A stretch of 64,000 bases of DNA from a virus (taxonomy: Duplodnaviria; Heunggongvirae; Uroviricota; Caudoviricetes), in the IMG/VR virus record IMGVR_UViG_3300035212_002004, positions 104,100 through 168,099 of that record, one strand, 5' to 3'. Positions within the stretch are counted from its first letter, which is position 1; the number at the start of each line of letters is the position of its first letter. The position numbers and the translations under genes are program-made. The notes beneath the pieces are model-generated. The model made no database searches. It worked only from the letters and a program-made list of their open reading frames with translations, and was not told where the DNA came from. Below, in pieces: positions 1,347-62,827 of this stretch.

Positions 1347-1977
1347 TTATTATATATTTGAATATGTAACCATGTTTTGTTTTTTTATAGTTTCCCTTTA
1401 AAACTTGACTAATAGTACTTTTATTTATATCCATTTCTTTAGAACATTCTGTTATACTATTAAAAATTTTTCCTGTATTAATACAAATTATAGGTTTAAA
1501 ATTGTTTATTATAGATTTGCCTTTCTTTAATTGAGAAATTACATTTCCAAATCCTTCAGGTTTAGGTTTACCTTGATTAGCTAAACGTTTTTTTTGTTTT
1601 GTTTCTTCACTTTGTGATTGTCCTTTAGGCCAACCATTTTTACCCATTCTACCTTGAGAAATATTTTGTTTAGTTTGTTCAGATCTAGGCCCTACTCCCT
1701 TATCAAATAAATCACTAAATAAGGCTTTACTCCATCCATACTTATTAACAAATTGTGTTTTATAAAAATTCTCTCTCTCATTAAGCAATTCTAAAGAACA
1801 TTCTTCTAATATTTCAATTATATGGTTGTTAAATCCATGTTTATTTAATGAGTTAAAAATTTGCGGTTGCTGTTTACATTCTAATCTTTTATAAGATTGA
1901 AATCTATTATTTAAATTAATAGATTGCCCTATATAAACTTTATTTGTTGGTGATGTTATTTTATATATTCCTATCAT
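1339..1977 (-). CDS. GIY-YIG homing endonuclease (free-standing; NUMOD-like repeats in C-terminal half)
   Basis: MIGIYKITSPTNKVYIGQS = GIY-(x10)-YIG motif. Basic repeat-rich C-terminus. Stop TGA overlaps terminase ATG (ATGAGTGA). Confidence 0.85.
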   Translation of the reverse strand: MIGIYKITSPTNKVYIGQSINLNNRFQSYKRLECKQQPQIFNSLNKHGFNNHIIEILEECSLELLNERENFYKTQFVNKYGWSKALFSDLFDKGVGPRSEQTKQNISQGRMGKNGWPKGQSQSEETKQKKRLANQGKPKPEGFGNVISQLKKGKSIINNFKPIICINTGKIFNSITECSKEMDINKSTISQVLKGNYKKTKHGYIFKYIINE

Positions 1978-2023
1978 TAGCCGCCCCTGTCTATTTTATA
2001 ATAAATATATAAAGGAGATAAAA

Positions 2024-2042
2024 GCCTAACGAAAGGTTAGGC
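2024..2042 (-). terminator. stem-loop (GCCTAAC-gaaag-GTTAGGC) between duplicated terminase 5' fragment and HEG
   Basis: Perfect 7-bp inverted repeat followed on minus strand by a T-rich run. Confidence 0.5.
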
Positions 2043-2050
2043 ATTTTAAA

Positions 2051-2104
2051 CTATTCTTGTTTTATGATTTCCTTTAAGGGAAGTTGTTGTTGTATTTCAG
2101 ACAT
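2051..2104 (-). pseudogene. 17-codon ORF (MSEIQQQLPLKEIIKQE*) duplicating the N-terminus of the terminase large subunit
   Basis: Near-identical at nucleotide and protein level to terminase start at 1346. It flanks the inserted GIY-YIG gene. Confidence 0.6.
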
Positions 2105-2122
2105 AACTAATTTAGAAGTTTT

Positions 2123-2812
2123 TTATACTCCTAATCTTTTATTTAATTTATTAATTTGAGCAGTTAAGTCTTTTAGTTGAGGTAAAACTGAAGTATCTCC
2201 ACCTTTATAAACTTTAGCTATTTCCATTCTTTTAGCTTCAAGATCTTTTTTAGCATTAATCATTTCATCTTTACTTCTTGAATCTTTTTCAACTCCTTTA
2301 TCAATTGAAGTGTCATCAGTTGATGGTTCAGATTTAGCTGGTGTGATTTTAATTTTTTGTTCTCCTGGAGTTTTAGCAGCTTTAGGTGCTTTTGGTTCAG
2401 CAGCTGGTTTATTAGGATCTACTGGACGTCCTGTTCTTTGAGCTAATGGAGAAGATGAAGCTGCAATATATTGAGCTAAATCTTTTTCTAATACTTCTCT
2501 TGATTTTGGGTTATTCCAGGTAGCAATATCTTTGCCAGTTTCTTTAGCTAAAGCTTTATAATCAACTTCACCTGTTTTTTCTAAAGCATCTAATGTATTA
2601 TAGATAGCTGATCCTGGTCTGAATTTTTCTTTTTTAGCTGCAATTGCTGCTTTAGCTTCTGGGGAATCATCTGTTACTTTATAGAATGAAGCCATTTCAT
2701 CTAATACTTCGTTTTCTTCTAAATCATCTTCTTGTAAGTAAGAAGCGTCAAAATTTTCAGTTAAAAGAAAATTCTTTGCTTTCTTTAAATCAAAATCATT
2801 ATTAATGTTCAT
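2123..2812 (-). CDS. hypothetical Lys/Ala/Pro-rich protein; possible terminase small subunit by position only
   Basis: 229-aa ORF immediately upstream (in transcription order) of the terminase large subunit. Low-complexity KAPKAAK region. No recognisable motif. Confidence 0.4.
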   Translation of the reverse strand: MNINNDFDLKKAKNFLLTENFDASYLQEDDLEENEVLDEMASFYKVTDDSPEAKAAIAAKKEKFRPGSAIYNTLDALEKTGEVDYKALAKETGKDIATWNNPKSREVLEKDLAQYIAASSSPLAQRTGRPVDPNKPAAEPKAPKAAKTPGEQKIKITPAKSEPSTDDTSIDKGVEKDSRSKDEMINAKKDLEAKRMEIAKVYKGGDTSVLPQLKDLTAQINKLNKRLGV

Positions 2813-2850
2813 TTTTTTTTATTTTTTAAGTTATGGTTTTGATATAAATA

Positions 2851-3381
2851 TTATAAGGAAATGACTTCTAGTATTTGTTTGATTCGTTCATCTGTTGTAC
2901 CAGAAATTTGTTTATAATTTTTAATTTTACCCCCATAAATATGAATAAAACGTTTAATAGTAGAATCTATTAAGTCTCTATATTTAGCATCAATAGTACG
3001 AACACCATTATCTTCAATTTCTACTCCTTCAGGAGATATATAAAAAATATAATCATATTCTTCAATAAAATCAGCAGTATAATTTCTAAATTTATTTTTA
3101 TCTACATAATCAATAGACTCAGCATTTTGAGTAAAAGCCATTACATCAATGACTGTTCTATCTGTAATTAAATTATCATTCATTAATTCTGATAGCCTTT
3201 CAGATAAAAATACTGTTTGACCTTTCATTGTAGAATCAGTATTTAAAGGAATACCTAAATCTCTTAAATACTTACTACGTTCAGTAGCAAAAGTATAATC
3301 TTTAAATTGTGGTAATTCTTTTAAAGCATTAACTAATGTTGTTTTACCACATGACATGGTTCCTGTGAATCCTATTTTCAT
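2851..3381 (-). CDS. P-loop NTPase/kinase, AAA_28-like (NadR-type ribosylnicotinamide kinase-like)
   Basis: N-terminal Walker A IGFTGTMSCGKTTL at residues 3-16. Size and motif placement typical of the NadR RNK domain. Confidence 0.45.
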   Translation of the reverse strand: MKIGFTGTMSCGKTTLVNALKELPQFKDYTFATERSKYLRDLGIPLNTDSTMKGQTVFLSERLSELMNDNLITDRTVIDVMAFTQNAESIDYVDKNKFRNYTADFIEEYDYIFYISPEGVEIEDNGVRTIDAKYRDLIDSTIKRFIHIYGGKIKNYKQISGTTDERIKQILEVISL

Positions 3382-3382
3382 A

Positions 3383-3634
3383 TTAAAATCTTGATGTTAC
3401 TTGTGGATTTTTTTCTGGTGGTACTCCATGACGATCTCTTCTTGCTTCTAACCATTCGTCTTTAGTATATTGGAAACCATATAAGTAGTATTCATCTTTT
3501 TTCTTTAATTCTTTAGCATATCTAAGAGCAGGCTCATCCCATGAATGCAATTTTCCATCAAAGTATATAATGGTTCTACCGTCAGTTGAGGTAAGGGTTC
3601 TTGATTTATAATCAATATTCGTAACGTCTTCCAT
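3383..3634 (-). CDS. hypothetical protein
   Basis: 83-aa ORF, tight spacing in operon. Confidence 0.5.
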   Translation of the reverse strand: MEDVTNIDYKSRTLTSTDGRTIIYFDGKLHSWDEPALRYAKELKKKDEYYLYGFQYTKDEWLEARRDRHGVPPEKNPQVTSRF

Positions 3635-3642
3635 TGGAAATT

Positions 3643-3888
3643 TTATTTTGTTTGTTCTATAAAAGATATAAAATCTTTAATAATTTCTTGTTTAACCGGT
3701 GTTGCTTTCTTATAAGCTTCGCTTAATATAATATTGATATTTGTGGTATCCAAAGACTCTATAAGAAGTTGTTTAAGAGGAGTTAAAGCACTTTCAGCTA
3801 AAATATACTCTGTATCTTCTCCATAATCCTCAATATCATTTAGATACAACTCTATATACTCTTGTAATTTATTTTGAGAAGTATTCAT
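3643..3888 (-). CDS. hypothetical acidic protein
   Basis: 81-aa ORF. Confidence 0.5.
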   Translation of the reverse strand: MNTSQNKLQEYIELYLNDIEDYGEDTEYILAESALTPLKQLLIESLDTTNINIILSEAYKKATPVKQEIIKDFISFIEQTK

Positions 3889-4351
3889 ATATTATCTTTT
3901 TAACATGTTTAACAATTTCTTTAATATTTTTAATTTGGGAATTTAACCATTGCATACGTTCACCCATACGTTTTCCTGCCATAGGAGTTTCAATATTATT
4001 TTCTGGGATGTATTTAAGTAAAGGTTTCATATATTCCGCTCCTGTCAAGCATATAAAATGGTCTTTTTCAGGATTAATACCGTAGGATTTCATTTGTTTT
4101 GCTACTTCAGCACCCCAAGTTTCTTTTTCATCTTTAGGCATCTCTTTAAGAGTTTTATCATAAGGTTCTAAAACCTTAGTTAAAGGTACTAGATAATGCT
4201 TAGCAGATAAAATAAACATTTTATCAGGTTTAAGCGACTTACCGTACTCTAAAGTTTTTTTGAATGTAGGCGACGCAGAATATAAGTCTTGTGCTTGAGA
4301 CGGCTTATCTAATTTAGATTTGGTGCAACTTAATAGTACTATAGTAGACAT
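3869..4351 (-). CDS. hypothetical protein
   Basis: 160-aa ORF. Confidence 0.5.
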   Translation of the reverse strand: MSTIVLLSCTKSKLDKPSQAQDLYSASPTFKKTLEYGKSLKPDKMFILSAKHYLVPLTKVLEPYDKTLKEMPKDEKETWGAEVAKQMKSYGINPEKDHFICLTGAEYMKPLLKYIPENNIETPMAGKRMGERMQWLNSQIKNIKEIVKHVKKIIYEYFSK

Positions 4352-4383
4352 TTATAATGATTTTAATATAAATATGTAAAATA

Positions 4384-5070
4384 TTAAGAAAATTCATTAT
4401 ACCATGCATCATCAATCCATTGAGATTTAATCTTTTTAACAATAGTAAAATATTTTTTCCAATCTATAGCACCAATATCTTGAAAATGTTTGTACTGTTT
4501 ACCTACTCTATTATCATAAGCATATCTTGATTTATGACTTAAGGTAATTGATGGATGATTTACTTTAAGTTTTACTCCATTATAATCAACATGAACTATA
4601 TCTCTAGATTTGACATATTGACTATTAAAAAAATCTATTGTATATTCTATATGACCATTATCACCTGATGGTGTAACCCATTCTGTAGTATGTTTATACA
4701 ATTGAATTAATTCTTTTTGGGTAAAATGTTTATCGGTTTTATTTTCACCTTTCATTTTACCTCCACCTGGCATTTCTGTAGTCTCATAATCACCTCTACC
4801 TATTACATAATTTAAATTAAAGAAATCTTTAAAAACTAGTAATTCATCTTCAGTTAATGGTTCAGTTAGACTAAAATCTATATCAGGTTTACGATTTTTA
4901 AAATCATACTCTACAATACCCATTACATATAGACCTAAACTGCCACCTAAAATTAATTTATCACTTAAATTAGTTAATGGAAGAATAATATCATCATATT
5001 TTTGAGGTAAAATATTAACAGTGTTTGGTTTATAACCGTTATGTATTCTACTTAATAGATCTTTAAACAT
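4384..5070 (-). CDS. hypothetical protein; possible minimal nucleotidyltransferase fold (GS...DxD)
   Basis: ILGGSLGLYVMGIVEYDFKNRKPDIDF resembles the hG[GS]...DhD Pol-beta NTase signature. Weak. Confidence 0.3.
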   Translation of the reverse strand: MFKDLLSRIHNGYKPNTVNILPQKYDDIILPLTNLSDKLILGGSLGLYVMGIVEYDFKNRKPDIDFSLTEPLTEDELLVFKDFFNLNYVIGRGDYETTEMPGGGKMKGENKTDKHFTQKELIQLYKHTTEWVTPSGDNGHIEYTIDFFNSQYVKSRDIVHVDYNGVKLKVNHPSITLSHKSRYAYDNRVGKQYKHFQDIGAIDWKKYFTIVKKIKSQWIDDAWYNEFS

Positions 5071-5072
5071 AA

Positions 5073-6251
5073 TTAATTGATTTTAATTTTAGTACCAGGT
5101 AATTCGTTGTTTATTTTTGATTTTGAACTATGAACCCATAATATAGGTTTTAAAGGTTTAGTATCAGGTGAAGAACATTCTCCATCTGTTAAATAAATTA
5201 AATTATCAAATTCATTTCTATGTTCAACTAAATACTGCATTACAGGTTCAAAACTAGTACCACCTCTACCTTGAACTGATAAGTCTTCTAAATTACCTTT
5301 ATATTCATAAACTCTTTGAATATCAGCGTCACATTCTACTACTGTTACTTTAGTACCTGTTTTATAAATGTGGTATATTTCATTAAAAAATTCTGCTAAT
5401 TCACTATTAGAAACTGAACCTGAAGTGTCAATTGCAACTAATGTTGATTTTTTAAGTTTAATTTTTAGAGCAGGATTACCATAAAAACGTTTATTAGGTT
5501 TACGTCTTGTTTTCTTAGTAAATATCTTATTTGATGTATTACTAAATCTACGTAAATAAGCTTTCCAATCTAATACAGGTTCTTGTACTTCAAATAAAGA
5601 ACTAATATAATCCTTCATTTCTGATGGTATTAAGCCTCTATCTTTAGCACGTTTTTCTAATTGATTTGCTATTTCTTTTAATTGGTGATCAACTTGTTTA
5701 CCTATTAATTTACGTTCTGCCTCACTCATCCCTTCCATTGCTTCCCACAACTCATGAATATCAATTTCCATACCATTCATGAAATCAGCAAAGTCTCCGT
5801 CCGGATTATTATCTAACTCGTCTTGAAGTTTATCATAATAATATTTAGTACCTTGTTTAGGGAGTAAATTTAAAGGTTTATAAATACCTTCCTCAAATTC
5901 TAATCCATCCCATTTTTCACCTTTATATTCGGCTTGAATATATTGATTAATTTCTAAATCAGCAGCAACATTATATAATTTCTTATTAGGAAATCTATCA
6001 AAATGTTGTAAATGAAAAAATGCAATATGAAGTAATTCATGTTTTAGGACACCTAATTTAGTGTTCTCATCTAATGAACTCCAAAAATCAGGATTGATAC
6101 AAAGTTTAATGTTTATGTTATCTGGTGTAACACAAGCAGTAGGAATAGATGTAGTTAATTCCTTGTTGAGTGAAATTAAAAATAAACCATAAAATGGTTC
6201 TTTTAACATTAAACTTTTAGAAAATTTAGTAACTTCGTGATAGATAGACAT
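5073..6251 (-). CDS. putative metallopeptidase domain + von Willebrand A (VWA) domain protein (DUF2201-like)
   Basis: HELLH (HExxH) in N-terminal half. C-terminal VAIDTSGSVS MIDAS-type DxSGS motif. Confidence 0.65.
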   Translation of the reverse strand: MSIYHEVTKFSKSLMLKEPFYGLFLISLNKELTTSIPTACVTPDNINIKLCINPDFWSSLDENTKLGVLKHELLHIAFFHLQHFDRFPNKKLYNVAADLEINQYIQAEYKGEKWDGLEFEEGIYKPLNLLPKQGTKYYYDKLQDELDNNPDGDFADFMNGMEIDIHELWEAMEGMSEAERKLIGKQVDHQLKEIANQLEKRAKDRGLIPSEMKDYISSLFEVQEPVLDWKAYLRRFSNTSNKIFTKKTRRKPNKRFYGNPALKIKLKKSTLVAIDTSGSVSNSELAEFFNEIYHIYKTGTKVTVVECDADIQRVYEYKGNLEDLSVQGRGGTSFEPVMQYLVEHRNEFDNLIYLTDGECSSPDTKPLKPILWVHSSKSKINNELPGTKIKIN

Positions 6252-6290
6252 AACCTTTTTTTTTAATTAATAATATTTAAATATAAGTTT

Positions 6291-7394
6291 TTAAGATTTA
6301 AGAGCCAAACTAATTTCTGATAATATTAATGAATTAGGATCTATAGATAACATTATGTTGATTTTATCTTTAACATAATCCGTAATAATTTCTTTAGATT
6401 CTTCATTATTTTGATGAACTTTGTATAAACTTAAACTAAATTTTACCCAGTCTTCTTTAAAATTAATATTTTTAGTATTATAATATTTTATGATACTTTT
6501 AAAACTTCTATGGTTATTTATACTTTTACCACTACCCCAATTAAATTTATCTACATGTTTATTTAAAAGAAGTGCAATTTTAAGTGAATCTTTTTCAATG
6601 TTAACATTACTTAACATTTCTAATGCCATATTGATATTATCCTGATCTAAACTGTTAAACATGCTGTCTAATGTCTTTAGATAATCTTTATCTAATTCAA
6701 TTCCATCACTATTAAGTGTTTCTAGAATATCATCATCAAATGCTATTTTAACATTAGGATTTTTAAAAACATATTCTAATAAACTATAGGTATCAATTAA
6801 ACTTCCTCCCCAAGTTTCTTTACATTTGTAAAATTCTAATGAAGTTTGTTTAGATATAAATTCTTTAAGAGTAAAAGATATAGGATTATTTAAATAAAAA
6901 TCATTATGTATAAAAAGATGATCTTCATTTGTGAATTTCATACGATCTTTAGGGAGAAGACTATCCTTACGATTATTATAACCAGTTTTATCACTATCCG
7001 GAGTTATCTCTTTTAATAATTGATAATTTTCAGTAGTTTGATCAATTTTAAAATAACTTTCTAACGATAATTTTTTAATTTGTTTATATAATTCAGTTAT
7101 ATAACTTTTATTAACAATTATATTATCACATTGTTCAACTCTTGATGTTTTTTTACCATTAGTTGTTTCAAAATATTCTTTTAACTTATGTCTAGGGACA
7201 TTAGATAATTTTCCTGTATAAGTTTTTCCAGGTAAATTAACATTTTTAGGCTGATTAATTATATTGTCTAAGAAAGTTAAATAATTAGTTCTTTCTTGTT
7301 CTGTAAACATAATAATATCAGATGCCCCGTCCCAATAAGTGTAATGCAATTTATTATTTTGAGTTGTTAAAATAATAGAATTTGGATATAACAT
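6291..7394 (-). CDS. hypothetical Asn/Lys-rich protein embedded in MoxR/VWA module
   Basis: 367-aa ORF between VWA protein and AAA ATPase. Confidence 0.5.
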   Translation of the reverse strand: MLYPNSIILTTQNNKLHYTYWDGASDIIMFTEQERTNYLTFLDNIINQPKNVNLPGKTYTGKLSNVPRHKLKEYFETTNGKKTSRVEQCDNIIVNKSYITELYKQIKKLSLESYFKIDQTTENYQLLKEITPDSDKTGYNNRKDSLLPKDRMKFTNEDHLFIHNDFYLNNPISFTLKEFISKQTSLEFYKCKETWGGSLIDTYSLLEYVFKNPNVKIAFDDDILETLNSDGIELDKDYLKTLDSMFNSLDQDNINMALEMLSNVNIEKDSLKIALLLNKHVDKFNWGSGKSINNHRSFKSIIKYYNTKNINFKEDWVKFSLSLYKVHQNNEESKEIITDYVKDKINIMLSIDPNSLILSEISLALKS

Positions 7395-7465
7395 AACCTT
7401 TGTTTTTAATTAATAATACTTAAATATAAGAATAATAAAAGGGGAGGCCAAGCCTCCCCATATTT

Positions 7466-8641
7466 CTATTTCATTATAAACTCAACTAACGATTTGTCCA
7501 TCATCATAACTTTAAATTTAGATGGATTATTATTATAAACTGACTTTACCATGTTGTAACAAATGTCAGTTGTAAATACTTTTTCATTAACAATTTTAGA
7601 TAACCTTTCAGTTACTGTTTTTTCTATTGGATTTTCTTTAGAAAATAAATCTAAGAAATTGATTATTCTAGTTGATAAAGTTGATGCAATATCTGCTCTA
7701 TATTTATCTTCTTTACCTGTTAATGATTTTAAAGTATTTAATACATACTGTTCATCCTGACTCATTATATTTTCAGGCGAAATCATTTTATCTAATTTAT
7801 TATTAATAAACATAGTAAATAAACTACTAAATTCTGGTCCTACTGAACCTTCACCTACCATTTGTATAAGTGGTAATGAATCATTAAAATTAGAAATAGA
7901 AGATATTGAGTTAAAAAACATAGATATACTTCTACTGTTTATATCTTGTGTAACTAATTCTGGGTGCATTAATAAGAAGTTAATACATCTACCATCAATT
8001 TTATTTTCTTCAGCCCATTTAGCCCAACAATCAATATCAAATTTTAATTGTACTGAAATAAAACGTGTTTTTTGTGCGTTATCTATACTATTAACTAAAT
8101 AATCTCCGTTATCCGGGTTAGCAGTTAATATAATATGCCAATCTTTTGGTAAAGACCAACTAATATATTGTTGTCTATCAATAAGTTCCATCACGGCTTG
8201 TATAAACCTAATATCAGCTCTATTCCAGTCATCTAATAATAGAATCCCACCATTTGTTTTGTTAGCTATCCATTCAGGTGGACAATAACTCATTCTATTT
8301 TGACCAGTCGAACTATAACCTAGTTTAAGATACTCATCAAATGCATGTTCATCTACCCAAACTGTTTCTTTATCATCTTTTACTTCAAACTGACGAATTG
8401 GAAAACCTACTAAATCACCAATTTCTTCAATTTGAGCTAAATTTAACTTAACAAAATTTAAGTTTTGTTCTTTAGCTAATTGAATAATAGCAGATGTTTT
8501 ACCAATACCTGATTCACCTATTACTTCAGTTGATACAGGTGTTTTACCTTGACTTTGTAAAAATCGATTGTTCTCAATAATGTGAGATAAGAAAGTTTTT
8601 AATTCGGTTACATTAACCGATACTAGATTTTGTTTTGACAT
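7466..8641 (-). CDS. MoxR-like AAA+ ATPase (AAA_5)
   Basis: Walker A GESGIGKTS. Walker B LLLDDWNRAD. Size and arrangement typical of MoxR partners of VWA proteins. Confidence 0.75.
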   Translation of the reverse strand: MSKQNLVSVNVTELKTFLSHIIENNRFLQSQGKTPVSTEVIGESGIGKTSAIIQLAKEQNLNFVKLNLAQIEEIGDLVGFPIRQFEVKDDKETVWVDEHAFDEYLKLGYSSTGQNRMSYCPPEWIANKTNGGILLLDDWNRADIRFIQAVMELIDRQQYISWSLPKDWHIILTANPDNGDYLVNSIDNAQKTRFISVQLKFDIDCWAKWAEENKIDGRCINFLLMHPELVTQDINSRSISMFFNSISSISNFNDSLPLIQMVGEGSVGPEFSSLFTMFINNKLDKMISPENIMSQDEQYVLNTLKSLTGKEDKYRADIASTLSTRIINFLDLFSKENPIEKTVTERLSKIVNEKVFTTDICYNMVKSVYNNNPSKFKVMMMDKSLVEFIMK

Positions 8642-8676
8642 AACTTTTATTTATAAATTAATAATACTTAAATATA

Positions 8677-8988
8677 CTAAGGATAAGAGAAGAGGCCAAA
8701 CAAATCGTCTTGAAAGGCTAAATAAGCTTCTTGAACTTTTTTCCAAGCAGGCTGTTGTTTTAAATTAATATAAAAACTGCTTATATCTTTATGACTTTGA
8801 GTTGCTTTATTATTTATTATTAAAGTTAAAGACAATTCTTCTATATAATGACAAGTATATAAATCATCAGTATCTGAGTTTAATATAATTTCACAAGCTA
8901 AGCCTATATCATTTCCTTCTGTTGAATGTACCATATCAAGTAATTGTTGATACATTTCTTCATCTATTTTGTGAATTTTAGAATACAT
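8677..8988 (-). CDS. hypothetical protein
   Basis: 103-aa ORF. GGGAGGCcaaGCCTCCC hairpin downstream of previous gene. Confidence 0.5.
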   Translation of the reverse strand: MYSKIHKIDEEMYQQLLDMVHSTEGNDIGLACEIILNSDTDDLYTCHYIEELSLTLIINNKATQSHKDISSFYINLKQQPAWKKVQEAYLAFQDDLFGLFSYP

Positions 8989-9044
8989 AACCTTTTTGTT
9001 TAAAAATATAAAATAAAAAATGGGAGGCCAAGCCTCCCTTTTAT

Positions 9045-10364
9045 TTAATTAAATTTTAATATGTCCTCTGCGACATAAATTCCTTGTGCACCACTTACTG
9101 TTATACCTCTAGCGGAAAGTGCATCACCAACGAAATGTACGTTTGGATACTTGGTCAGGGCTAGGTTGGTATAATCAACAAGTGGCTCAGGAGATAGATA
9201 TTTTACTTCAGGTATGTACATACCCCAATCGTCTTTTAATGTAGGGAATATTTTTTTCATTCCATCAATGAAATCATCAATGTATCCAAAATACCCTTCA
9301 AATACTTCTCTTACTTCATCCATTCCTAATCTATCTATTTGATAGGCTTCTACAAAATCACCTTCTGAAGTGTATGAAGGTACTCTAGATGGTGAGTAAT
9401 ATAATCCTTTATTATCAACTTGTAATATTTTAACTAAATTTCTGCTCCAAGTAAATGGATCTTCGATTCCGTTTACTTCCATTATGATACCGAAATTAGT
9501 CATATCGTTTCTATACTTTTCATCTTTCTTAGCATGACCATTGTATGAGTAGTTTCCGTATGTTTCTTCTACCGCAACATAAGCAGCATTGTTATTAGTG
9601 CAGAATGAACGTAATGATACTCCTTTATCATCGAATTTTCTATATAACTTAAAGTCATATGATACATCAATTAGTTTTTGGAAATGTTTTTGTGGTGCTT
9701 CAAAACGAACACCAATTTGTACTGATTTAGGTTCAGTTGGTAAGTCGTATTGTTCGGCTAAAGATTTACCAAAGTCAATACCTGATTTTCCAACACCAAA
9801 TATGAGTTCATCATAGGACAATCTTACTTCTTGTTGATATTTATCTTTAGCTCTAATAAACTTAGTATCAAAATCAATAGAATATACTTTAGTTTCCCAT
9901 TCAAAATGAACTCCATTATCAACTAAATATTGATACCAGTTTTTATTAATTTTATGCAAGTAATCAGTTCCTATATGATAAACACCAAATAAACGTAAAC
10001 CAAAGTAGGGTTTAATAAAGTCAGGTTCTTCTGTAGGATTTGAATACATTATTTTAGAAGGATCAGGGTGAAATCTTCTCCACATATCGATAGATTGATC
10101 CATTAATTCATATGCTTTATCTTTACCACAATATTTTGAAAGCTGACCACCAATCATATGATGGTATGTAAGTTTCCCATCTGAAAATCCTCCAGCTCCT
10201 GCGAACCCTTCCATAACTTCATTAGGCTTTCTATTATAAGGGTCTTTACCCATATCAATAATAGTAATCAAATTGCCAGGATATCCATTGTCAATTAGTT
10301 TAGTAGCAGCACTAATTCCTGATACTCCACTACCTACAATAACAATTTTTTTAGTTTGTTTCAT
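9045..10364 (-). CDS. FAD-dependent oxidoreductase (COG2509-like FAD-dependent dehydrogenase)
   Basis: N-terminal Rossmann GxGxxG (IVIVGSGVSGISAA). GFAGAGGFSDGKL motif. C-terminal GDA..RG typical of FAD enzymes. Confidence 0.7.
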   Translation of the reverse strand: MKQTKKIVIVGSGVSGISAATKLIDNGYPGNLITIIDMGKDPYNRKPNEVMEGFAGAGGFSDGKLTYHHMIGGQLSKYCGKDKAYELMDQSIDMWRRFHPDPSKIMYSNPTEEPDFIKPYFGLRLFGVYHIGTDYLHKINKNWYQYLVDNGVHFEWETKVYSIDFDTKFIRAKDKYQQEVRLSYDELIFGVGKSGIDFGKSLAEQYDLPTEPKSVQIGVRFEAPQKHFQKLIDVSYDFKLYRKFDDKGVSLRSFCTNNNAAYVAVEETYGNYSYNGHAKKDEKYRNDMTNFGIIMEVNGIEDPFTWSRNLVKILQVDNKGLYYSPSRVPSYTSEGDFVEAYQIDRLGMDEVREVFEGYFGYIDDFIDGMKKIFPTLKDDWGMYIPEVKYLSPEPLVDYTNLALTKYPNVHFVGDALSARGITVSGAQGIYVAEDILKFN

Positions 10365-10399
10365 TTTTATATTCCCATTTAAATTTATATTTTAAATAT

Positions 10400-10425
10400 A
10401 AGAAGGCTCCTTTACGGAGCCAAAC
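10400..10425 (-). terminator. GGCTCC-tttac-GGAGCC stem-loop (member of recurring intergenic hairpin family)
   Basis: Same GGCTCC/GGAGCC stem recurs near 11955, 21262, 55707 and 61975. Confidence 0.5.
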
Positions 10426-10444
10426 TTATTAATTAGTTTATTTT

Positions 10445-10888
10445 TTATATAACATTATATTCTACTCCTCCTGTTTTTAAATTAACAATACCCGGAATAT
10501 TAATCATTTTGTAATCTTTTGCTTGAATATCATAGACAGGTATTAGTCCCTTAGTATTAGGATCATATGGTAATACTCCTCCTCTTAGATAAGCTTTAAC
10601 ACCTAAACGAGCATTCATTACTCTTTTCTCACCATTAGATTTTTTAATAAAAGTAACAGTAAAAATTTGCCCTTTAGTATCTCTTATCTTTTGGGCAGCT
10701 TCTAATTTAGAAATATTTTGAAGTGGTTGTTCTTCAGGAATTTCAGATTCAGGTGTTTCTGGTTCAGGTGCTAGTTCAGCTTCTGGTTCAGGTTCTACTC
10801 TATCCCCAATATTAAGTTCAGGTTCCTGTTCTTTAAAGATTTGTTTTAATTCCTCTCTAATAATCTCTTTTAATTCTGATTTTTTCAT
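10445..10888 (-). CDS. hypothetical protein (acidic PE-repeat N-terminus, beta-rich C-terminus)
   Basis: 147-aa ORF. Confidence 0.5.
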   Translation of the reverse strand: MKKSELKEIIREELKQIFKEQEPELNIGDRVEPEPEAELAPEPETPESEIPEEQPLQNISKLEAAQKIRDTKGQIFTVTFIKKSNGEKRVMNARLGVKAYLRGGVLPYDPNTKGLIPVYDIQAKDYKMINIPGIVNLKTGGVEYNVI

Positions 10889-11112
10889 TAGCCTAGTTCT
10901 TCAAAGTCATCGTTTTTATCTAAATAGAATTTGTCTTCTTTACCTTTACCATTTGATAATGTTAACTCAATATCACTACCATAAGGTTTTTTATCGATAA
11001 CTGTGACCATTTCTCCCTTTTTAAATATACCAATGTCTCCTCTTAAGGCCAAATCATCTCCAATTTTGATTTGAACTTCTTTTATTTCCTTTAAATATTC
11101 GTTTAATTTCAT
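10888..11112 (-). CDS. hypothetical protein
   Basis: 74-aa ORF, ATGA overlap with downstream gene. Confidence 0.45.
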   Translation of the reverse strand: MKLNEYLKEIKEVQIKIGDDLALRGDIGIFKKGEMVTVIDKKPYGSDIELTLSNGKGKEDKFYLDKNDDFEELG

Positions 11113-11133
11113 GGTAGTATTTACGAATAAATA

Positions 11134-11919
11134 TTATTTTTTAATTTCTCTTTCTAATTGTTTAGTAACTATACCTTCATAAGTTCTATTAGCAACAGTA
11201 TGATACTTATGGCAATCATTACATTGTACTTGAATACGTGGTGTTCCAGCAGCAGAATAACGAGTTTTAGAATATCTTAGATCTTCTGAACCGCATTCAG
11301 GGCAAGATGATTTTTCTCCTGTTGATAATACACCAAAGTGAGATTTATGAGGAACATAATTTTTAAGATGATGAAATACCTTTTCTAATATAATAACATC
11401 ATTTTTACAGTATTCAACCATGGTTTTCATAGCAGTTTGACTGTTATTTAGTACTATATCTTTCCATAAATCAAATCCTCCAGTTTCAGATTTTTCACCT
11501 ACACCTAAATATTGGGAAATGTAATTTAAAGTATTACTATTAAATCTAAATTTAGAACGTGATTGTTTTAAAGTATCAAGTGTAGTATAATTAGGAAAAC
11601 ATGGGATTCTATGGAATAAACAACGTGTTCTAATCCAAGGTAAATCAAATCTATCCCCATTATGACCTACTAATTCATTAGCTTCATTAGCCACAGTGAT
11701 AAATTTTTCTAACATAGATTTATCATCTTGGTCTTTATCCCAATTTAAAGAGTATACTTTATCTTCATCCTCCCATTTGTAACAAATACAAATAATAGCT
11801 CTTTCTTTAATAATATTGCTGTATGGTACATTTAATTTATACCCAGACTGCCAGAAAAATCCGATATTGGGACTAGTTTCGATGTCAAAAAATAATCTTT
11901 TTTTATTTAATTTGTTCAT
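11134..11919 (-). CDS. DnaQ/DEDD-family 3'-5' exonuclease (T4 DexA-like) with C-terminal zinc ribbon
   Basis: Exo I FDIETS. Exo II GHNGDRFDLP. Exo III YCKNDV. CPECG...CNDCH C4 ribbon. Confidence 0.7.
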   Translation of the reverse strand: MNKLNKKRLFFDIETSPNIGFFWQSGYKLNVPYSNIIKERAIICICYKWEDEDKVYSLNWDKDQDDKSMLEKFITVANEANELVGHNGDRFDLPWIRTRCLFHRIPCFPNYTTLDTLKQSRSKFRFNSNTLNYISQYLGVGEKSETGGFDLWKDIVLNNSQTAMKTMVEYCKNDVIILEKVFHHLKNYVPHKSHFGVLSTGEKSSCPECGSEDLRYSKTRYSAAGTPRIQVQCNDCHKYHTVANRTYEGIVTKQLEREIKK

Positions 11920-43609: not shown

Positions 43610-44245
43610 TTAATATTTAATTAATTCTCCATTATAAAAATCTTTACCTATTAATATAAGTACTTCAAGAGCATCTTCTAAACTAATTTCAAAAAATTCC
43701 CTAGAAGAGCCTTGATGACTATTTCTCCTTAAAAATTCCAATTTATTATGTATTAAATTTTCAACTTTATAATCATCAGTAACTGGTAAAGCATATTTTA
43801 AATCCCATTCAGAAACAGTTCCTGCTCCATTTATCTGTTTAACTCTTTTAGAGGGGGTTATAGCTTTACCTATTTTACAATAACCAGGATATGCATCATT
43901 AATTAAAATGTAAACATATTGGCCTCTAGAATGCAACTCATCCAATTGCACCTTACCCGCTACCCCTTTTGCGTACATATATACCCAATTTACTGTAAAA
44001 GGTTCATCTTCTTTTTCAAATTTATATTCAATTCTATAATTAAAATCAATAAAATTAAAAAATTTATTTAAAGATATTTTCCTATATTTAGAAATTAAAT
44101 CTTGCCAATTTTGCCTCCAAAGAGAATATTGGGGTAAATCGTTTAAAGGGGATAAAACACGTCCTGAGTGGTAAATATTAATATCACCGTTATTTTCCAT
44201 TTTTATAGCCTGAATAACTGATAATACATTATCGGGGTATGACAT
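43610..44245 (-). CDS. T5orf172 (GIY-YIG-like) domain protein
   Basis: YVYILINDAYPGYCKIGKAITPSKRVKQ ... EFFEISLEDALEVL matches the T5orf172 signature. Confidence 0.6.
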   Translation of the reverse strand: MSYPDNVLSVIQAIKMENNGDINIYHSGRVLSPLNDLPQYSLWRQNWQDLISKYRKISLNKFFNFIDFNYRIEYKFEKEDEPFTVNWVYMYAKGVAGKVQLDELHSRGQYVYILINDAYPGYCKIGKAITPSKRVKQINGAGTVSEWDLKYALPVTDDYKVENLIHNKLEFLRRNSHQGSSREFFEISLEDALEVLILIGKDFYNGELIKY

Positions 44246-50696: not shown

Positions 50697-50866
50697 AACA
50701 ATATATTTTAAATTAATAATACTTAAATATACGAATTTTATTTTTATAATCCTAATACTCTATTTAAAAATAAAAATTACCCTTCTGGAGCTTCACCAGC
50801 CTTCTAGTATACTTATACCTCTCAGCTAAGAGTCAGTACGAGCTTTTTACTTTGGATAATTTTTAG

Positions 50867-50925
50867 TGGAGTGAGAGGAATCGAACCTCTTGCCTAAACA
50901 GTCTTGCCGTAATCGAACCACTCCA
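50867..50925 (-). ncRNA. 59-nt tRNA-like element: perfect 7-bp acceptor stem + canonical T-arm (AGAGG-TTCGATT-CCTCT), no recognisable D or anticodon arm
   Basis: Hand-folded. 28 nt between acceptor and T-arm contain a GGCAAGA direct repeat, not an anticodon hairpin. Confidence 0.35.
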
Positions 50926-50971
50926 GGACCTGCAGATCCAAATAATAATGACTACCAAAATTATTATTTTG

Positions 50972-51056
50972 ATGTTGTGACAGGATTCGAACCTGCATCT
51001 TTATGTCGCCCAGTATTTGTACTTACAACTTGCGTCTACCATTCCGCCACACAACA
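50972..51056 (-). tRNA. 85-nt type-II-length tRNA-like gene (acceptor, D-arm GCG-GAATGGTAGA-CGC and T-arm GCAGG-TTCGAAT-CCTGT canonical; anticodon arm not resolved by eye)
   Basis: D-arm resembles bacterial tRNA-Leu/Tyr/Ser class. Variable-arm hairpin CAT-aaag-ATG. Anticodon stem could not be paired. Confidence 0.5.
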
Positions 51057-51097: not shown

Positions 51098-51358
51098 TTA
51101 AAAACATGATTGTATGATATCATCATGCCAATACCCAATATCATCATTTATAATTTCTAATTGAGCTTCAGTCATTTCCACTCCATCATAATCAGCACTT
51201 TCAATATAAGCGTCACAAAAATCTGGGTAATCATCAAAATCAATTCCACCAAATATTATATTATCAATTAAACTGTAATCCAAATCCAATTCTTCAGATT
51301 CAGGAAAGTTATCAGGATTATTTGAATTGAAATTATTATCATTATAAGTGTCTAACAT
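51098..51358 (-). CDS. hypothetical very acidic protein
   Basis: 86-aa ORF. Confidence 0.5.
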   Translation of the reverse strand: MLDTYNDNNFNSNNPDNFPESEELDLDYSLIDNIIFGGIDFDDYPDFCDAYIESADYDGVEMTEAQLEIINDDIGYWHDDIIQSCF

Positions 51359-51403
51359 AATACTATTTTTAAATTAATAATACTTAAATATACGAAATAA
51401 AAT

Positions 51404-53679: not shown

Positions 53680-53732
53680 AACCTTTTACTTTTTTAATTA
53701 ATAATACTTAAATATACGAAATTTATTTAATA

Positions 53733-54005: not shown

Positions 54006-54752
54006 TTACAATACATTATAATGTTTAACTTGACCAACTAAACTCGCAATACTCACTCTTGTCTCAGTTGTTTTATAACCACTACCTATCTCAATCTCAA
54101 CTGTACATGTTCTACCTTTAACTTCAATTATTCTGATTCGATTTAATTTTGGGCAGTAAGTACGTTTTAATTCTATATGTTGTGGTATGTCAAATACAAC
54201 TCCCTCTTCAGATGATAATTTAATTAATGTTGCTTCTGATTTGAGTGTGCTTATTTTATCATCTAATTCTCTAATACCTTTATTTATTAGATTCATTTGA
54301 TCATAACTTCTTTTAAATTCATCTTTAAAAAGATTTGAAGTGTTATTGGCAGTGTCAACTAAGTCATGTTGACGTTTTAATACAACATCAGCTGCATCAC
54401 CTAATATTTTTAATCTCTTTAATTCCCATTCATCATCCCCTTTTGTTGAAGTTGTATAATAAGATAAATCAACTCCATCATAACGTTGTCCTTCCTCAAA
54501 ATATCTTTCTCTTAAATAAAGAGTAAATAATTCCTTTCTACGATTTAACTCGGAGTGGTCCATTTTAAAATAAATAGATCCTCTTGTTACTTCAATGTAG
54601 ACATCTGGATGGAACCCTTCAAAATAAGGAATTAAAGCATTACTCATTGCTTGTTCCTTTCTTGTGTAGATTTCAGATCTAGCTTCTTCTAACTCATTCT
54701 TTTGAGTTATGAAGATAGCTTTTTGCTCTTCTAATGCTTTAATTACTATCAT
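54006..54752 (-). CDS. hypothetical coiled-coil protein
   Basis: 248-aa ORF. Confidence 0.5.
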   Translation of the reverse strand: MIVIKALEEQKAIFITQKNELEEARSEIYTRKEQAMSNALIPYFEGFHPDVYIEVTRGSIYFKMDHSELNRRKELFTLYLRERYFEEGQRYDGVDLSYYTTSTKGDDEWELKRLKILGDAADVVLKRQHDLVDTANNTSNLFKDEFKRSYDQMNLINKGIRELDDKISTLKSEATLIKLSSEEGVVFDIPQHIELKRTYCPKLNRIRIIEVKGRTCTVEIEIGSGYKTTETRVSIASLVGQVKHYNVL

Positions 54753-61393: not shown

Positions 61394-61434
61394 AACATTT
61401 ACTATTTTTAATTAATAATACTTAAATATACGAA

Positions 61435-62260: not shown

Positions 62261-62827
62261 TTAATTTTTAAATTTCCATTTATAACCGTAAGCGGTTTTT
62301 TGTTCTCCTCGACAACATGCCCCTACTCCATCACTATTAGGTTTATTAAAATAAAGTTGGGCTTGTGTTTGTGACTCCCATTCTTTAATAAAATTACCTT
62401 CTAAATCTAATTGAATTACTCGAATTAAAGTCCAAGTATTTTTTCTTTCTTTAAGATGACCCCGTTTGGCTTTAATTTTAGCTTTATGCTCATCACTAAA
62501 TGGTTTACCCTTATGAGATTTAGATAACCCTTTACTTGATAGAGAGATTTTCTCCCCACGTTCTGGTCCAAAATTACATTTAGTAGAACCACCACCACCA
62601 TCATTCTTATTTACTAAGTTAAATCCCCAGGTTCTGATTTGTGATATCCAATACCTTTCCCAAAATTCCCATTTGGTTGTATCAACTATATCTAATATTT
62701 CTATTTTAGTATTACAACCAAACTTTTTTCTATGTGCTCCTATTCTACCTTTAATTTGAACTGTTTTACCTATATAAAATGGAATGTCATTTCCATTATG
62801 TAAATAATATATTATTGTTTGTTCCAT
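62261..62827 (-). CDS. GIY-YIG homing endonuclease (Seg-like) with NUMOD3 repeats
   Basis: IIYYLHNGNDIPFYIGKT (GIY-x10-YIG). KGKPFSDEHKAKIKAKRG NUMOD3-like. C-terminal AYGYKWKF. Confidence 0.75.
   Translation of the reverse strand: MEQTIIYYLHNGNDIPFYIGKTVQIKGRIGAHRKKFGCNTKIEILDIVDTTKWEFWERYWISQIRTWGFNLVNKNDGGGGSTKCNFGPERGEKISLSSKGLSKSHKGKPFSDEHKAKIKAKRGHLKERKNTWTLIRVIQLDLEGNFIKEWESQTQAQLYFNKPNSDGVGACCRGEQKTAYGYKWKFKN

Follow-up and report, generated by a model that had tools for sequence, protein, structure and literature searches.

The window analysed here comprises 64,000 nucleotides (nt) of an uncultivated tailed phage (Caudoviricetes; IMG/VR record IMGVR_UViG_3300035212_002004, positions 104,100 to 168,099), and it carries on its minus strand a short unit that ends in a group of structured RNA genes, two of which, designated here elements A and B, resemble transfer RNAs (tRNAs). 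The unit is headed by a promoter-like 24-nt repeat, TTCGTATATTTAAGTATTATTAAT (51373..51396), and contains an open reading frame (ORF) of 86 amino acids (51098..51358) directly upstream of A (50972..51056), an A/T-rich spacer that folds into a hairpin of 10 base pairs (bp; 50940..50969), a small hairpin termed H (GGAUC-UGCA-GGUCC; 50926..50939), which lies 1 nt upstream of B and forms part of the B unit, element B itself (50867..50925), a third structured RNA termed C (50774..50862), and a terminator-like run of U residues (50760-50773); the next copy of the promoter-like repeat (50712..50735) marks the end of the unit. A was recognized with the Rfam tRNA model, ARAGORN, its fold and its family, B with covariance models, covariation and the form of its trailer, H by covariation, and C by its fold and the conservation of its ends in relatives.

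Together, A, B and C make up a cassette of accessory RNAs that occupies the 3' end of this repeat-headed unit. A and B represent two families absent from Rfam 15, and we consider it very probable that both are selected, non-decoding tRNA-like RNAs. Each keeps the top half of a tRNA and its elbow, i.e. the acceptor stem, a T-arm with a canonical T-loop, and the GG of the D-loop, and each has lost the anticodon loop, which is replaced in A by a capped stem and in B by a 6-bp bulged hairpin next to the T-arm, accompanied by the extra hairpin on the 5' side. A preliminary description of the locus had listed tRNA mimics or minihelices among several possibilities, and as a structural class this designation holds for both elements.

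Element A and its family

The ends of element A form a 7-bp acceptor stem (TGTTGTG/CACAACA) followed by the discriminator T (U73), and its T-arm reads GCAGG-TTCGAAT-CCTGT; the likeness of its D-arm (GGCGGAATGGTAGACGC) to that of tRNA-Leu, already pointed out in the preliminary description, is confirmed from the sequence. The Rfam tRNA model RF00005 matches A with 40.4 bits (gathering score 29) and an E-value of 4.4e-5 over the 64-kb window, with 30 nt standing in place of the 17-nt anticodon arm of the model. An anticodon arm comprising a 5-bp stem and a 7-nt loop with U33 and a purine at position 37 cannot be placed anywhere in A, in agreement with the earlier failure to pair one by hand, and the minimum free energy fold has at this position an irregular 9-bp stem that ends in a CAAA tetraloop. 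ARAGORN labels A as 'tRNA-???' with a 2-base anticodon.

The A family comprises about 20 distinct members, collected by pattern scans and from close relatives. They share a near-invariant acceptor stem (UGUUGUG/CACAACA) and the discriminator U, most of them have the trailer CAAAA and a leader ending in AGUU, and the T-arm is usually GCAGG-UUCGAAU-CCUGY. The acceptor and T stems are paired in 98.8% of cases, and the rare variants of the acceptor stem are compensatory (UGUUAUG/CAUAACA and UACUGUG/CACAGUA). U8, A14, G18, G19 and the T-loop are conserved. The D-arm, on the other hand, occurs in three types, namely Leu-like as in the window, identical to that of the tRNA-Gln of Flavobacterium phage vB_FspM_immuto (TGGTGTAATGGTAACAC), and generic class I, and the branch at the anticodon position is nearly specific to each member. 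It is never canonical and takes the form of loops of 5, 6, 8 or 9 nt, of stems capped by GAAA or CAAA, or of inserts of 30-45 nt; the 8-bp stems capped by GAAA show compensatory changes between the loci L120, L299 and L295 (L numbers denote related loci throughout). Support from covariation is limited for the A family as a whole and strong for the B family.

Existing tRNA finders mislabel A as 'tRNA-???', Arg, Ile, Thr or Ser. For most members ARAGORN either fails or reports anticodons of 2 or 4 bases, and the few that it names are assigned differing amino acids. A as an intron-containing tRNA was considered and rejected: with introns allowed, ARAGORN proposes eight different anticodons over 13 members that share one acceptor stem, and therefore the branch is neither decoding nor a conserved intron.

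Element B, hairpin H and the B family

In the window, B has the acceptor stem TGGAGTG/CACTCCA and the T-arm AGAGG-TTCGATT-CCTCT, separated by 28 nt that contain a stem-less D-loop and no loop able to hold an anticodon. It has no Rfam match at the gathering threshold or at E<=10, matches to the T-arm alone aside, and ARAGORN misses it in standard, low-threshold, mitochondrial (-mt) and transfer-messenger RNA (tmRNA; -m) modes. Thus, the check that the preliminary description had proposed, whether tRNA finders would call both elements as ordinary tRNAs with normal anticodon arms, was answered in the negative by ARAGORN and the Rfam tRNA model alike.

Relatives of B were gathered by exact-pattern scans of IMG/VR and the JGI metagenomes, a procedure biased towards conserved motifs; the bias was partly controlled by a scan on B's own 5' part, in which H was not required, and by a leave-out model. 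Matches of the metagenome scan with high G+C content were chance matches in coding DNA, and a first viral scan with the D-arm pattern proved too general, returning 119 unrelated loci of the tRNA-Leu type that were reused as a negative set. The B family contains at least 27 distinct sequences, all on low-GC contigs of uncultivated phages of up to 256 kb. From the 5' end, its members consist of a 5-bp hairpin with the invariant apex C-UGCA-G, 1 nt, the acceptor strand GGAG(U/A/G)G, a single-stranded stretch G-UYU-GGUUAAAG, a 3+3-bp hairpin with a bulged A on its 3' side and a loop of 3-4 nt, one A, a 5-bp T stem with a loop of the UUCGAAU type, the acceptor strand C(A/U/C)CUCC, a discriminator A (or G), C, and an A-rich sequence.

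In the alignment of 24 distinct B sequences, 96.2% of the pair cells hold standard pairs, compared to 35-55% when the partners are slid against each other. Twelve of the 22 pairs change on both sides, covariation is seen in all four helices, and none of 500 shuffles reached the observed values. The changes are unevenly distributed: five of the six acceptor pairs are invariant or nearly so, while four of the five pairs of the T stem change on both sides. The invariant residues of the T-loop and the D-loop G are conserved, and the D-loop that the members share (UGGUUAAAG) has no stem.

The window copy receives 85.3 bits from a covariance model, R1, which has no match in 81 unrelated low-GC phage loci. 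The leave-out model R2, from which the hairpin and the clade of the window (the window itself, L120, L123 and L267) were excluded, still scores it at 62.1 bits as the only strong match in the 64 kb, with an E-value of 4.4e-14 (E-values from models built here are rough). The window copy departs from the family in its D-loop (UUCGAUUAC, consensus UUUGGUUAAAG) and in one A-G mismatch in the central hairpin.

These comparisons modify the earlier picture in several respects. The perfect 7-bp acceptors and textbook T-arms reported for both elements are indeed present in both window copies, but the B family conserves only six acceptor pairs (GGAGTG/CACTCC): the first T-A pair is unique to the window copy among the aligned sequences, L123 has T-G, and most others have an A-A or G-A mismatch. 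The 28 nt between acceptor and T-arm were correctly counted, whereas the GGCAAGA direct repeat noticed in them is an accident of the window variant and is not conserved. The hand-drawn fold, which its author suspected might be wrong, was essentially right, but it overlooked the 14-nt hairpin on the 5' side and, within B, the D-loop without a stem and the short hairpin at the centre.

The 5' hairpin H varies in its arms (GGAUC/GGUCC, GGAUC/GAUCC, GGGUC/GGCCC, GGCUC/GAGCU, AGAGC/GCUCU) around the invariant CUGCAG apex. It precedes every complete true copy of B found in the H-independent search (one locus begins at the match), and in all copies it is separated from B by exactly 1 nt. A survey of 32 related loci gave 43 paired-hairpin counts, of which 32 stand before the 5' end of a B copy (NGGAG), five more are reverse-strand readings of such hairpins, and one stands before a second, diverged copy of B, so that in tRNA-rich loci the CUGCAG hairpin occurs almost nowhere but before B. 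B is kept together with H across phages whose flanks cannot be aligned. H may be left on the upstream fragment after cleavage by RNase P or may stay on B; if it were stacked on the acceptor stem, its 5' end would lie beside the 3' end of the RNA.

The 3' trailers of both elements follow the rule of the genuine tRNAs of related phages, which end in N73-C-(A/T-rich): A has U-C-AAAA, and B has A-C-UAAA (A-C-AAA in most relatives), the base at 50866 being C.

Element C

C has a closing stem of 9 bp (AAAUUAUCC/GGGUAAUUU) around a variable middle part and a conserved hairpin, CUGG-UGAAGCU-CCAG, and is followed by the U-run. Its ends are conserved and its middle is variable in L120, L126, L267, L299, L300 and L301, where it sometimes stands right after A in the absence of B. 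B and C as the two pieces of a permuted tmRNA were considered and rejected: the 5' strand of B pairs perfectly with its own 3' strand, Rfam gives a score of 13 bits, and a conserved tag frame is lacking.

Origin of A and B

The acceptor of B (GGAGUG/CACUCC, A73) is the same as that of the phage tRNA-Tyr, its D-loop (TGGTTAAAG) is the same as that of one tRNA-Tyr, and its central hairpin stands 1 nt before the T stem, where the variable arm of a class II tRNA would sit. Among the matches of R2 to real tRNAs, which score 22-24 bits, tRNA-Tyr ranks among the others and is alone in sharing the acceptor sequence of B. Some A variants combine the D-arm of the immuto tRNA-Gln with U1-A72, as in tRNA-Gln. 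Judging by these similarities, the two families probably descend from genuine tRNAs of phages that later took on another use.

Distribution and modularity

In the collections searched, the A and B families are found in viral sequence only. A scan with the combined pattern of hairpin, B and T-loop through one genome for each of 185,579 bacterial and archaeal species gave no match; in the same genomes the 3' end of A hits only five chance sites, in coding DNA, and the acceptor of A with U73 occurs in no cellular tRNA. Comparison by blastn of the 3-kb region and two B variants with 50,697 cultured-phage records returned nothing, or matches to the T-arm only, and the 100 kb searched with R1 in the 160-kb genome of Flavobacterium phage immuto, its tRNA cluster included, contain no B. 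Several large relatives have B embedded in an array of 14-25 ordinary tRNAs, and these form complete or nearly complete sets. One B-carrying locus, L248, has an array (1386-11451) of 24 tRNAs for all 20 amino acids; the same locus contains a permuted two-piece tmRNA (2060-2213, minus strand; Rfam RF04321, 73.1 bits), for which ARAGORN predicts the tag ANDNFALAA.

The contents of the cassette were compared between the window and seven close relatives, in which a neighbouring 248-amino-acid protein is 62-96% identical. The window has A, B and C; L293 has A and B; L299 and L300 have A and C; L301 has A, a further tRNA-like RNA, B and C; L295 and L298 have A alone; and L297 has none of them. In L295, the cassette is cleanly absent between homologous flanking genes. 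The core of A, the spacer and the subtype of B vary even where the flanking protein is 90% identical. We conclude from these differing contents at one locus that A, B and C are independent, exchangeable accessory modules; they assort freely among phages that show 77-96% identity in neighbouring proteins. In L293, the sequence after B (8830-8850) is CAACATCAAAAAA, a copy of the 3' end of A with its trailer, which is a hint that cassette modules recombine through the conserved sequences at their ends.

Between A and B, the spacer differs from relative to relative and can shrink to 6 nt, as in L138, and the A/T-rich hairpin of the window is not conserved in the family. In L122 (10790-10850, minus strand), as well as in L123, L124, L126 and L140, the spacer is occupied by a conserved element resembling a three-way junction (AAGC-AGGG..CCCU-AGGA..UCCU-AGCUU). 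Further aberrant tRNA-like genes with good acceptor stems and T-arms and odd cores were observed in L131 (2146-2237), L256 (6050-6134 and 6656-6742), L255 (2920-2991) and L301 (~7660-7750). An aberrant core is also seen in an 86-nt gene of phage immuto annotated as tRNA-Cys (L286, 20246-20331), which might provide an experimental entry point in a cultured phage. In L255 (~5490-5650, minus strand) and L131 (~1680-1815), a conserved RNA-like stretch of ~150 nt without an Rfam match, ending in the T-arm AUGUGG-UUCGAGU-CCACAU, lies just upstream of H and B.

Genomic setting

The window has a G+C content of 28%, and all its long ORFs lie on the minus strand. Among its products are an ATP-dependent DNA ligase and a baseplate wedge protein, and the latter shares 49% identity with its counterpart in Flavobacterium phage vB_FspM_immuto (160 kb), 48.7% with that of Microcystis phage Mel-JY01 and 40.8% with that of an uncultured 484-kb phage. 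The window is part of the genome, probably ~168 kb long, of an uncultivated myovirus, whose closest cultured relatives have Flavobacterium and Microcystis as hosts. Neither ARAGORN nor Rfam detects an ordinary tRNA in the whole 64 kb.

The TTCGTATATTTAAGTATTATTAAT repeat has 15 minus-strand copies in the window against none expected by chance (others are found, e.g., at 53697-53720 and 61411-61434) and stands upstream of many small ORFs; relatives have a similar motif, TATCTTTAGGTAT. It is probably the promoter of one temporal class of genes. The leader motif 'ATAAGTT' was considered as a Bacteroidota -7 promoter box and rejected, because in these phages the same motif forms the stop-codon/start-codon junction of ORFs. 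The context upstream of A, with the 86-amino-acid ORF, recurs in the close relatives L293, L299, L300 and L301. A search for antisense targets within the window, made with the variable parts of A, the spacer, B and C, gave no more matches than shuffled sequences did.

A single neighbour recurs, namely the 248-amino-acid protein (54006-54752, minus strand in the window), which has 223 metagenomic homologues and no match in Pfam or PHROG. Its gene starts ~85 nt after B in eight related loci and lies 0.3-0.7 kb downstream of the start of B in three more. It was considered as a conserved partner of B and rejected; relatives without B keep it too, and in the window it lies 3 kb upstream of B, so its proximity reflects synteny and not linkage. 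In a relative of L297, a 262-amino-acid gene with a match to PF01743 lies directly upstream of the homologue of this protein. A neighbouring ORF of 255 amino acids has no relatives in IMG/VR. Two homing-endonuclease-like genes on the minus strand (43610-44245 and 62261-62827) encode a T5orf172/MUG113 domain and a GIY-YIG domain, and in L298 an additional GIY-YIG/NUMOD3 gene is inserted in the same region.

Function of the cassette RNAs

The explanation that we favour overall, and to which we give about an even chance, is that A and B are accessory non-decoding tRNA mimics acting through the acceptor stem, T-arm and elbow, be it as decoys or as modules for processing. Both would be transcribed together with the upstream ORF, and host enzymes that recognize the shape of tRNA (RNase P, RNase Z or exonucleases, and the CCA-adding enzyme) would process them into stable small RNAs; such enzymes should act on A and B because the stack of acceptor and T-arm, the elbow contacts and the tRNA-like trailers are all kept. 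The stable mimics might then occupy or divert a factor that reads the acceptor stem and the elbow and not the anticodon, such as a host tRNA-directed defence enzyme or an enzyme of tRNA maturation or charging. The combination of near-invariant acceptors with freely covarying T stems and central hairpins points to a partner that reads sequence at the acceptor end, beyond a shape-reading nuclease. A mimic occupying such a factor would explain both the near-invariance of the acceptor stem and the gain and loss of modules between near-identical phages, which is typical of counter-defence. The decoy mechanism as such is put forward tentatively and is less likely than not.

A more elaborate and less likely version is that H with B, and independently A, constitute an undescribed class of phage counter-defence RNA, i.e. 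anticodon-less tRNA mimics, derived for B from a class II tRNA-Tyr-like molecule and for some A members from tRNA-Gln, whose invariant acceptor end traps a host immune effector or a maturation enzyme that acts on the acceptor/CCA end or the elbow. If this were true, H would bring the 5' end of the RNA to its 3' end, as a clamp or as a blocked, ligatable nick, and the free assortment of A, B and C would reflect an arms race.

Several considerations weigh against the interpretation of A and B as acceptor/elbow mimics. We infer both their maturation and the existence of a binding partner from sequence. The near-invariance of the acceptor stems could be due in part to recombination between cassettes, and not to recognition. 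Adjacent to the cassette there is no candidate partner protein, the neighbours being small ORFs, a DUF932 protein, the ATP-dependent DNA ligase and the homing-endonuclease-like genes (the protein-domain scan covered 30 of the ~92 ORFs of the window). The mature 5' end of B is uncertain, since pre-tRNAs do not typically have a hairpin right next to the RNase P site, and such a hairpin might interfere with cleavage. The folding energies of the single sequences do not stand out and are uninformative (z -0.6 to -1.3). Finally, a decoy for anticodon nucleases, which are the best-known form of defence directed at tRNAs and were raised in the preliminary description, is unlikely, because neither RNA has the anticodon loop that such a decoy needs.

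A possible but somewhat doubtful alternative is that the elements are processing or punctuation modules, in which the tRNA shape recruits RNase P and RNase Z to cut a polycistronic transcript, thereby defining the 3' end of the upstream mRNA and freeing the neighbours, either C or H as a protective 3' end of the upstream fragment, after the model of the mascRNA discussed below. The cassette closes its transcription unit, with an ORF before it, a terminator-like U-run after it and no promoter-like repeat of its own, which agrees with this idea, as does the size of B, which like mascRNA is a ~60-nt tRNA-like RNA without an anticodon loop (PMC8457004). Since H ends 1 nt before B in every copy, RNase P cleavage would leave H as a 3'-terminal hairpin, and in L299 and L300 C follows A directly without B. 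However, RNase P and RNase Z need shape and not sequence, while the acceptors are near-invariant and the other helices covary. In addition, A stands between the mRNA and H, so that H would protect only the non-conserved spacer, which is as short as 6 nt; the conserved D-loop and central hairpin of B would be superfluous in a minimal RNase P substrate; and B is retained inside dense tRNA arrays that are already rich in processing sites.

It is improbable that A and/or B are charged non-decoding acceptors, i.e. substrates of an anticodon-blind aminoacyl-tRNA synthetase, serving an off-ribosome transferase or sequestering the synthetase or EF-Tu. A conserved acceptor with a conserved discriminator (U73 in A; A73 or G73 in B) is indeed the classic identity signature of a synthetase, the acceptor, the D-loop and the hairpin 1 nt before the T stem give B the look of a class II tRNA, and in one relative a gene of the PF01743 family (poly(A) polymerase / CCA-adding nucleotidyltransferase) lies near the syntenic 245-amino-acid gene. 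Nevertheless, no synthetase or transferase gene is seen nearby, the lack of G3-U70 means that the amino acid would not be alanine by the known rule, the acceptor of A with U73 matches no cellular tRNA of the genome scan, and bacterial tyrosyl-tRNA synthetase also uses the anticodon.

Still less probable are real decoding tRNAs with unusual anticodon arms, either containing short introns that are removed or having loops that read 4- or 2-base codons for programmed frameshifting. With introns allowed, ARAGORN does call the window copy of A as tRNA-Ser(ACU) with an 8-nt 'intron' and a loop with U33 and a purine at position 37, and several relatives have loops of 8 or 9 nt, like frameshift suppressors. 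Against this, one acceptor with U73 is joined to the eight 'anticodons' mentioned above, other members have loops of 5 or 6 nt or tetraloop-capped stems that are unable to decode, and B has no loop for an anticodon at all; no splicing system for inserts of 2-38 nt at varying positions is known in bacteria.

Decay, which the preliminary description had also suggested, can hardly be entertained: that the relatives carry big tRNA arrays while the window has no normal tRNA, and that B resembles a tRNA with parts deleted, might suggest remnants of a lost array or a host tRNA fragment of the phage attachment site (attP) type, but both families are under clear purifying selection, compensatory changes occur in all four helices of B and in the stems of A, whose acceptor is near-invariant while its core turns over, tertiary-contact nucleotides are conserved, B and H stay together across unalignable flanks, none of the 185,579 genomes has an identical host tRNA segment, no integrase is found among the neighbours, and the diversity of the B family argues against recent copies of a single mobile sequence.

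The tRNA genes of phages are usually explained by codon usage or by the replacement of tRNAs cleaved in host defence, both of which require an anticodon. The A and B families point instead to uses of the tRNA shape outside translation, be it mimicry of the acceptor and elbow or the employment of tRNA-processing enzymes as a machinery for RNA maturation.

Comparison with known systems

With respect to canonical tRNAs (RF00005), the two families stand at different distances. A scores above the gathering threshold and B does not match even at E<=10; no member of either family has a 7-nt anticodon loop with U33 and a purine at position 37, and B has neither a D stem nor an anticodon arm, its acceptor stem being one pair shorter. 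B is not an armless tRNA of the mitochondrial type either, as ARAGORN in -mt mode finds no gene in the region and there is no anticodon arm.

The tRNA-like domain of tmRNA resembles B in having an acceptor stem and a T-arm, a D-loop without a D stem (with the GG kept) and a helix that replaces the anticodon arm. However, B has A3-U70 in all 24 sequences, and not G3-U70, it has no mRNA-like domain, and the short frames downstream of it are not conserved. It scores 11.7-13 bits with the Rfam models, on the T-arm only, against thresholds of 47-84, ARAGORN -m returns nothing, and B is a complete 60-nt unit whose own strands pair.

YrlA and other Y RNA-like RNAs contain a tRNA-like module, and jumbo phages have been noted to encode Ro/TROVE proteins that have tRNA-like partners (PMC7824862). 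Like A and B, YrlA is non-decoding and mimics the tRNA elbow formed by the T-loop and the D-loop. The ends of YrlA are located at the side of the anticodon, and a loop closes the stem that resembles an acceptor. In A and B, on the contrary, the ends form the acceptor stem; there is no Rfam match, and no Ro/TROVE domain was found among the 30 of the ~92 window ORFs that were scanned.

A parallel to the architecture of B is provided by mascRNA and menRNA, tRNA-like RNAs that RNase P and RNase Z release from the 3' ends of the MALAT1 and NEAT1 transcripts (PMC8457004). Both sides share a length of ~60 nt, an acceptor stem and T-arm, the lack of a functional anticodon loop, and a position directly after a structured element whose end coincides with the RNase P site (PMC8457004). 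An architecture of this type fits B, with H ending 1 nt before it and the unit closing a transcription unit, and processing of the same kind may be proposed. The differences are that mascRNA is eukaryotic and nuclear and has an upstream triple helix, whereas here there is a 5-bp hairpin, A intervenes between the mRNA and the hairpin, and the sequence of the acceptor is conserved.

The nearest counterparts among phages are RNAC and RNAD of T4, small non-tRNA RNAs encoded in the tRNA region of that phage, whose function is still unknown (PMC3014915, PMC9697503). The likeness lies in the setting, i.e. the tRNA region of a large myovirus, since B of the relatives stands within arrays of 14-25 tRNAs. 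The differences are that the architecture of B is defined by covariation and that it belongs to a different, low-GC lineage of Immutovirus-like phages; blastn against INPHARED gave T-arm matches only, and this comparison did not involve the RNAC and RNAD sequences directly. The A and B families thus give an alignable handle on the role of the small stable non-tRNA RNAs in phage tRNA clusters, RNAC and RNAD included, and the models described here could be used to annotate such RNAs in viromes, where tRNA finders miss B and mislabel A.

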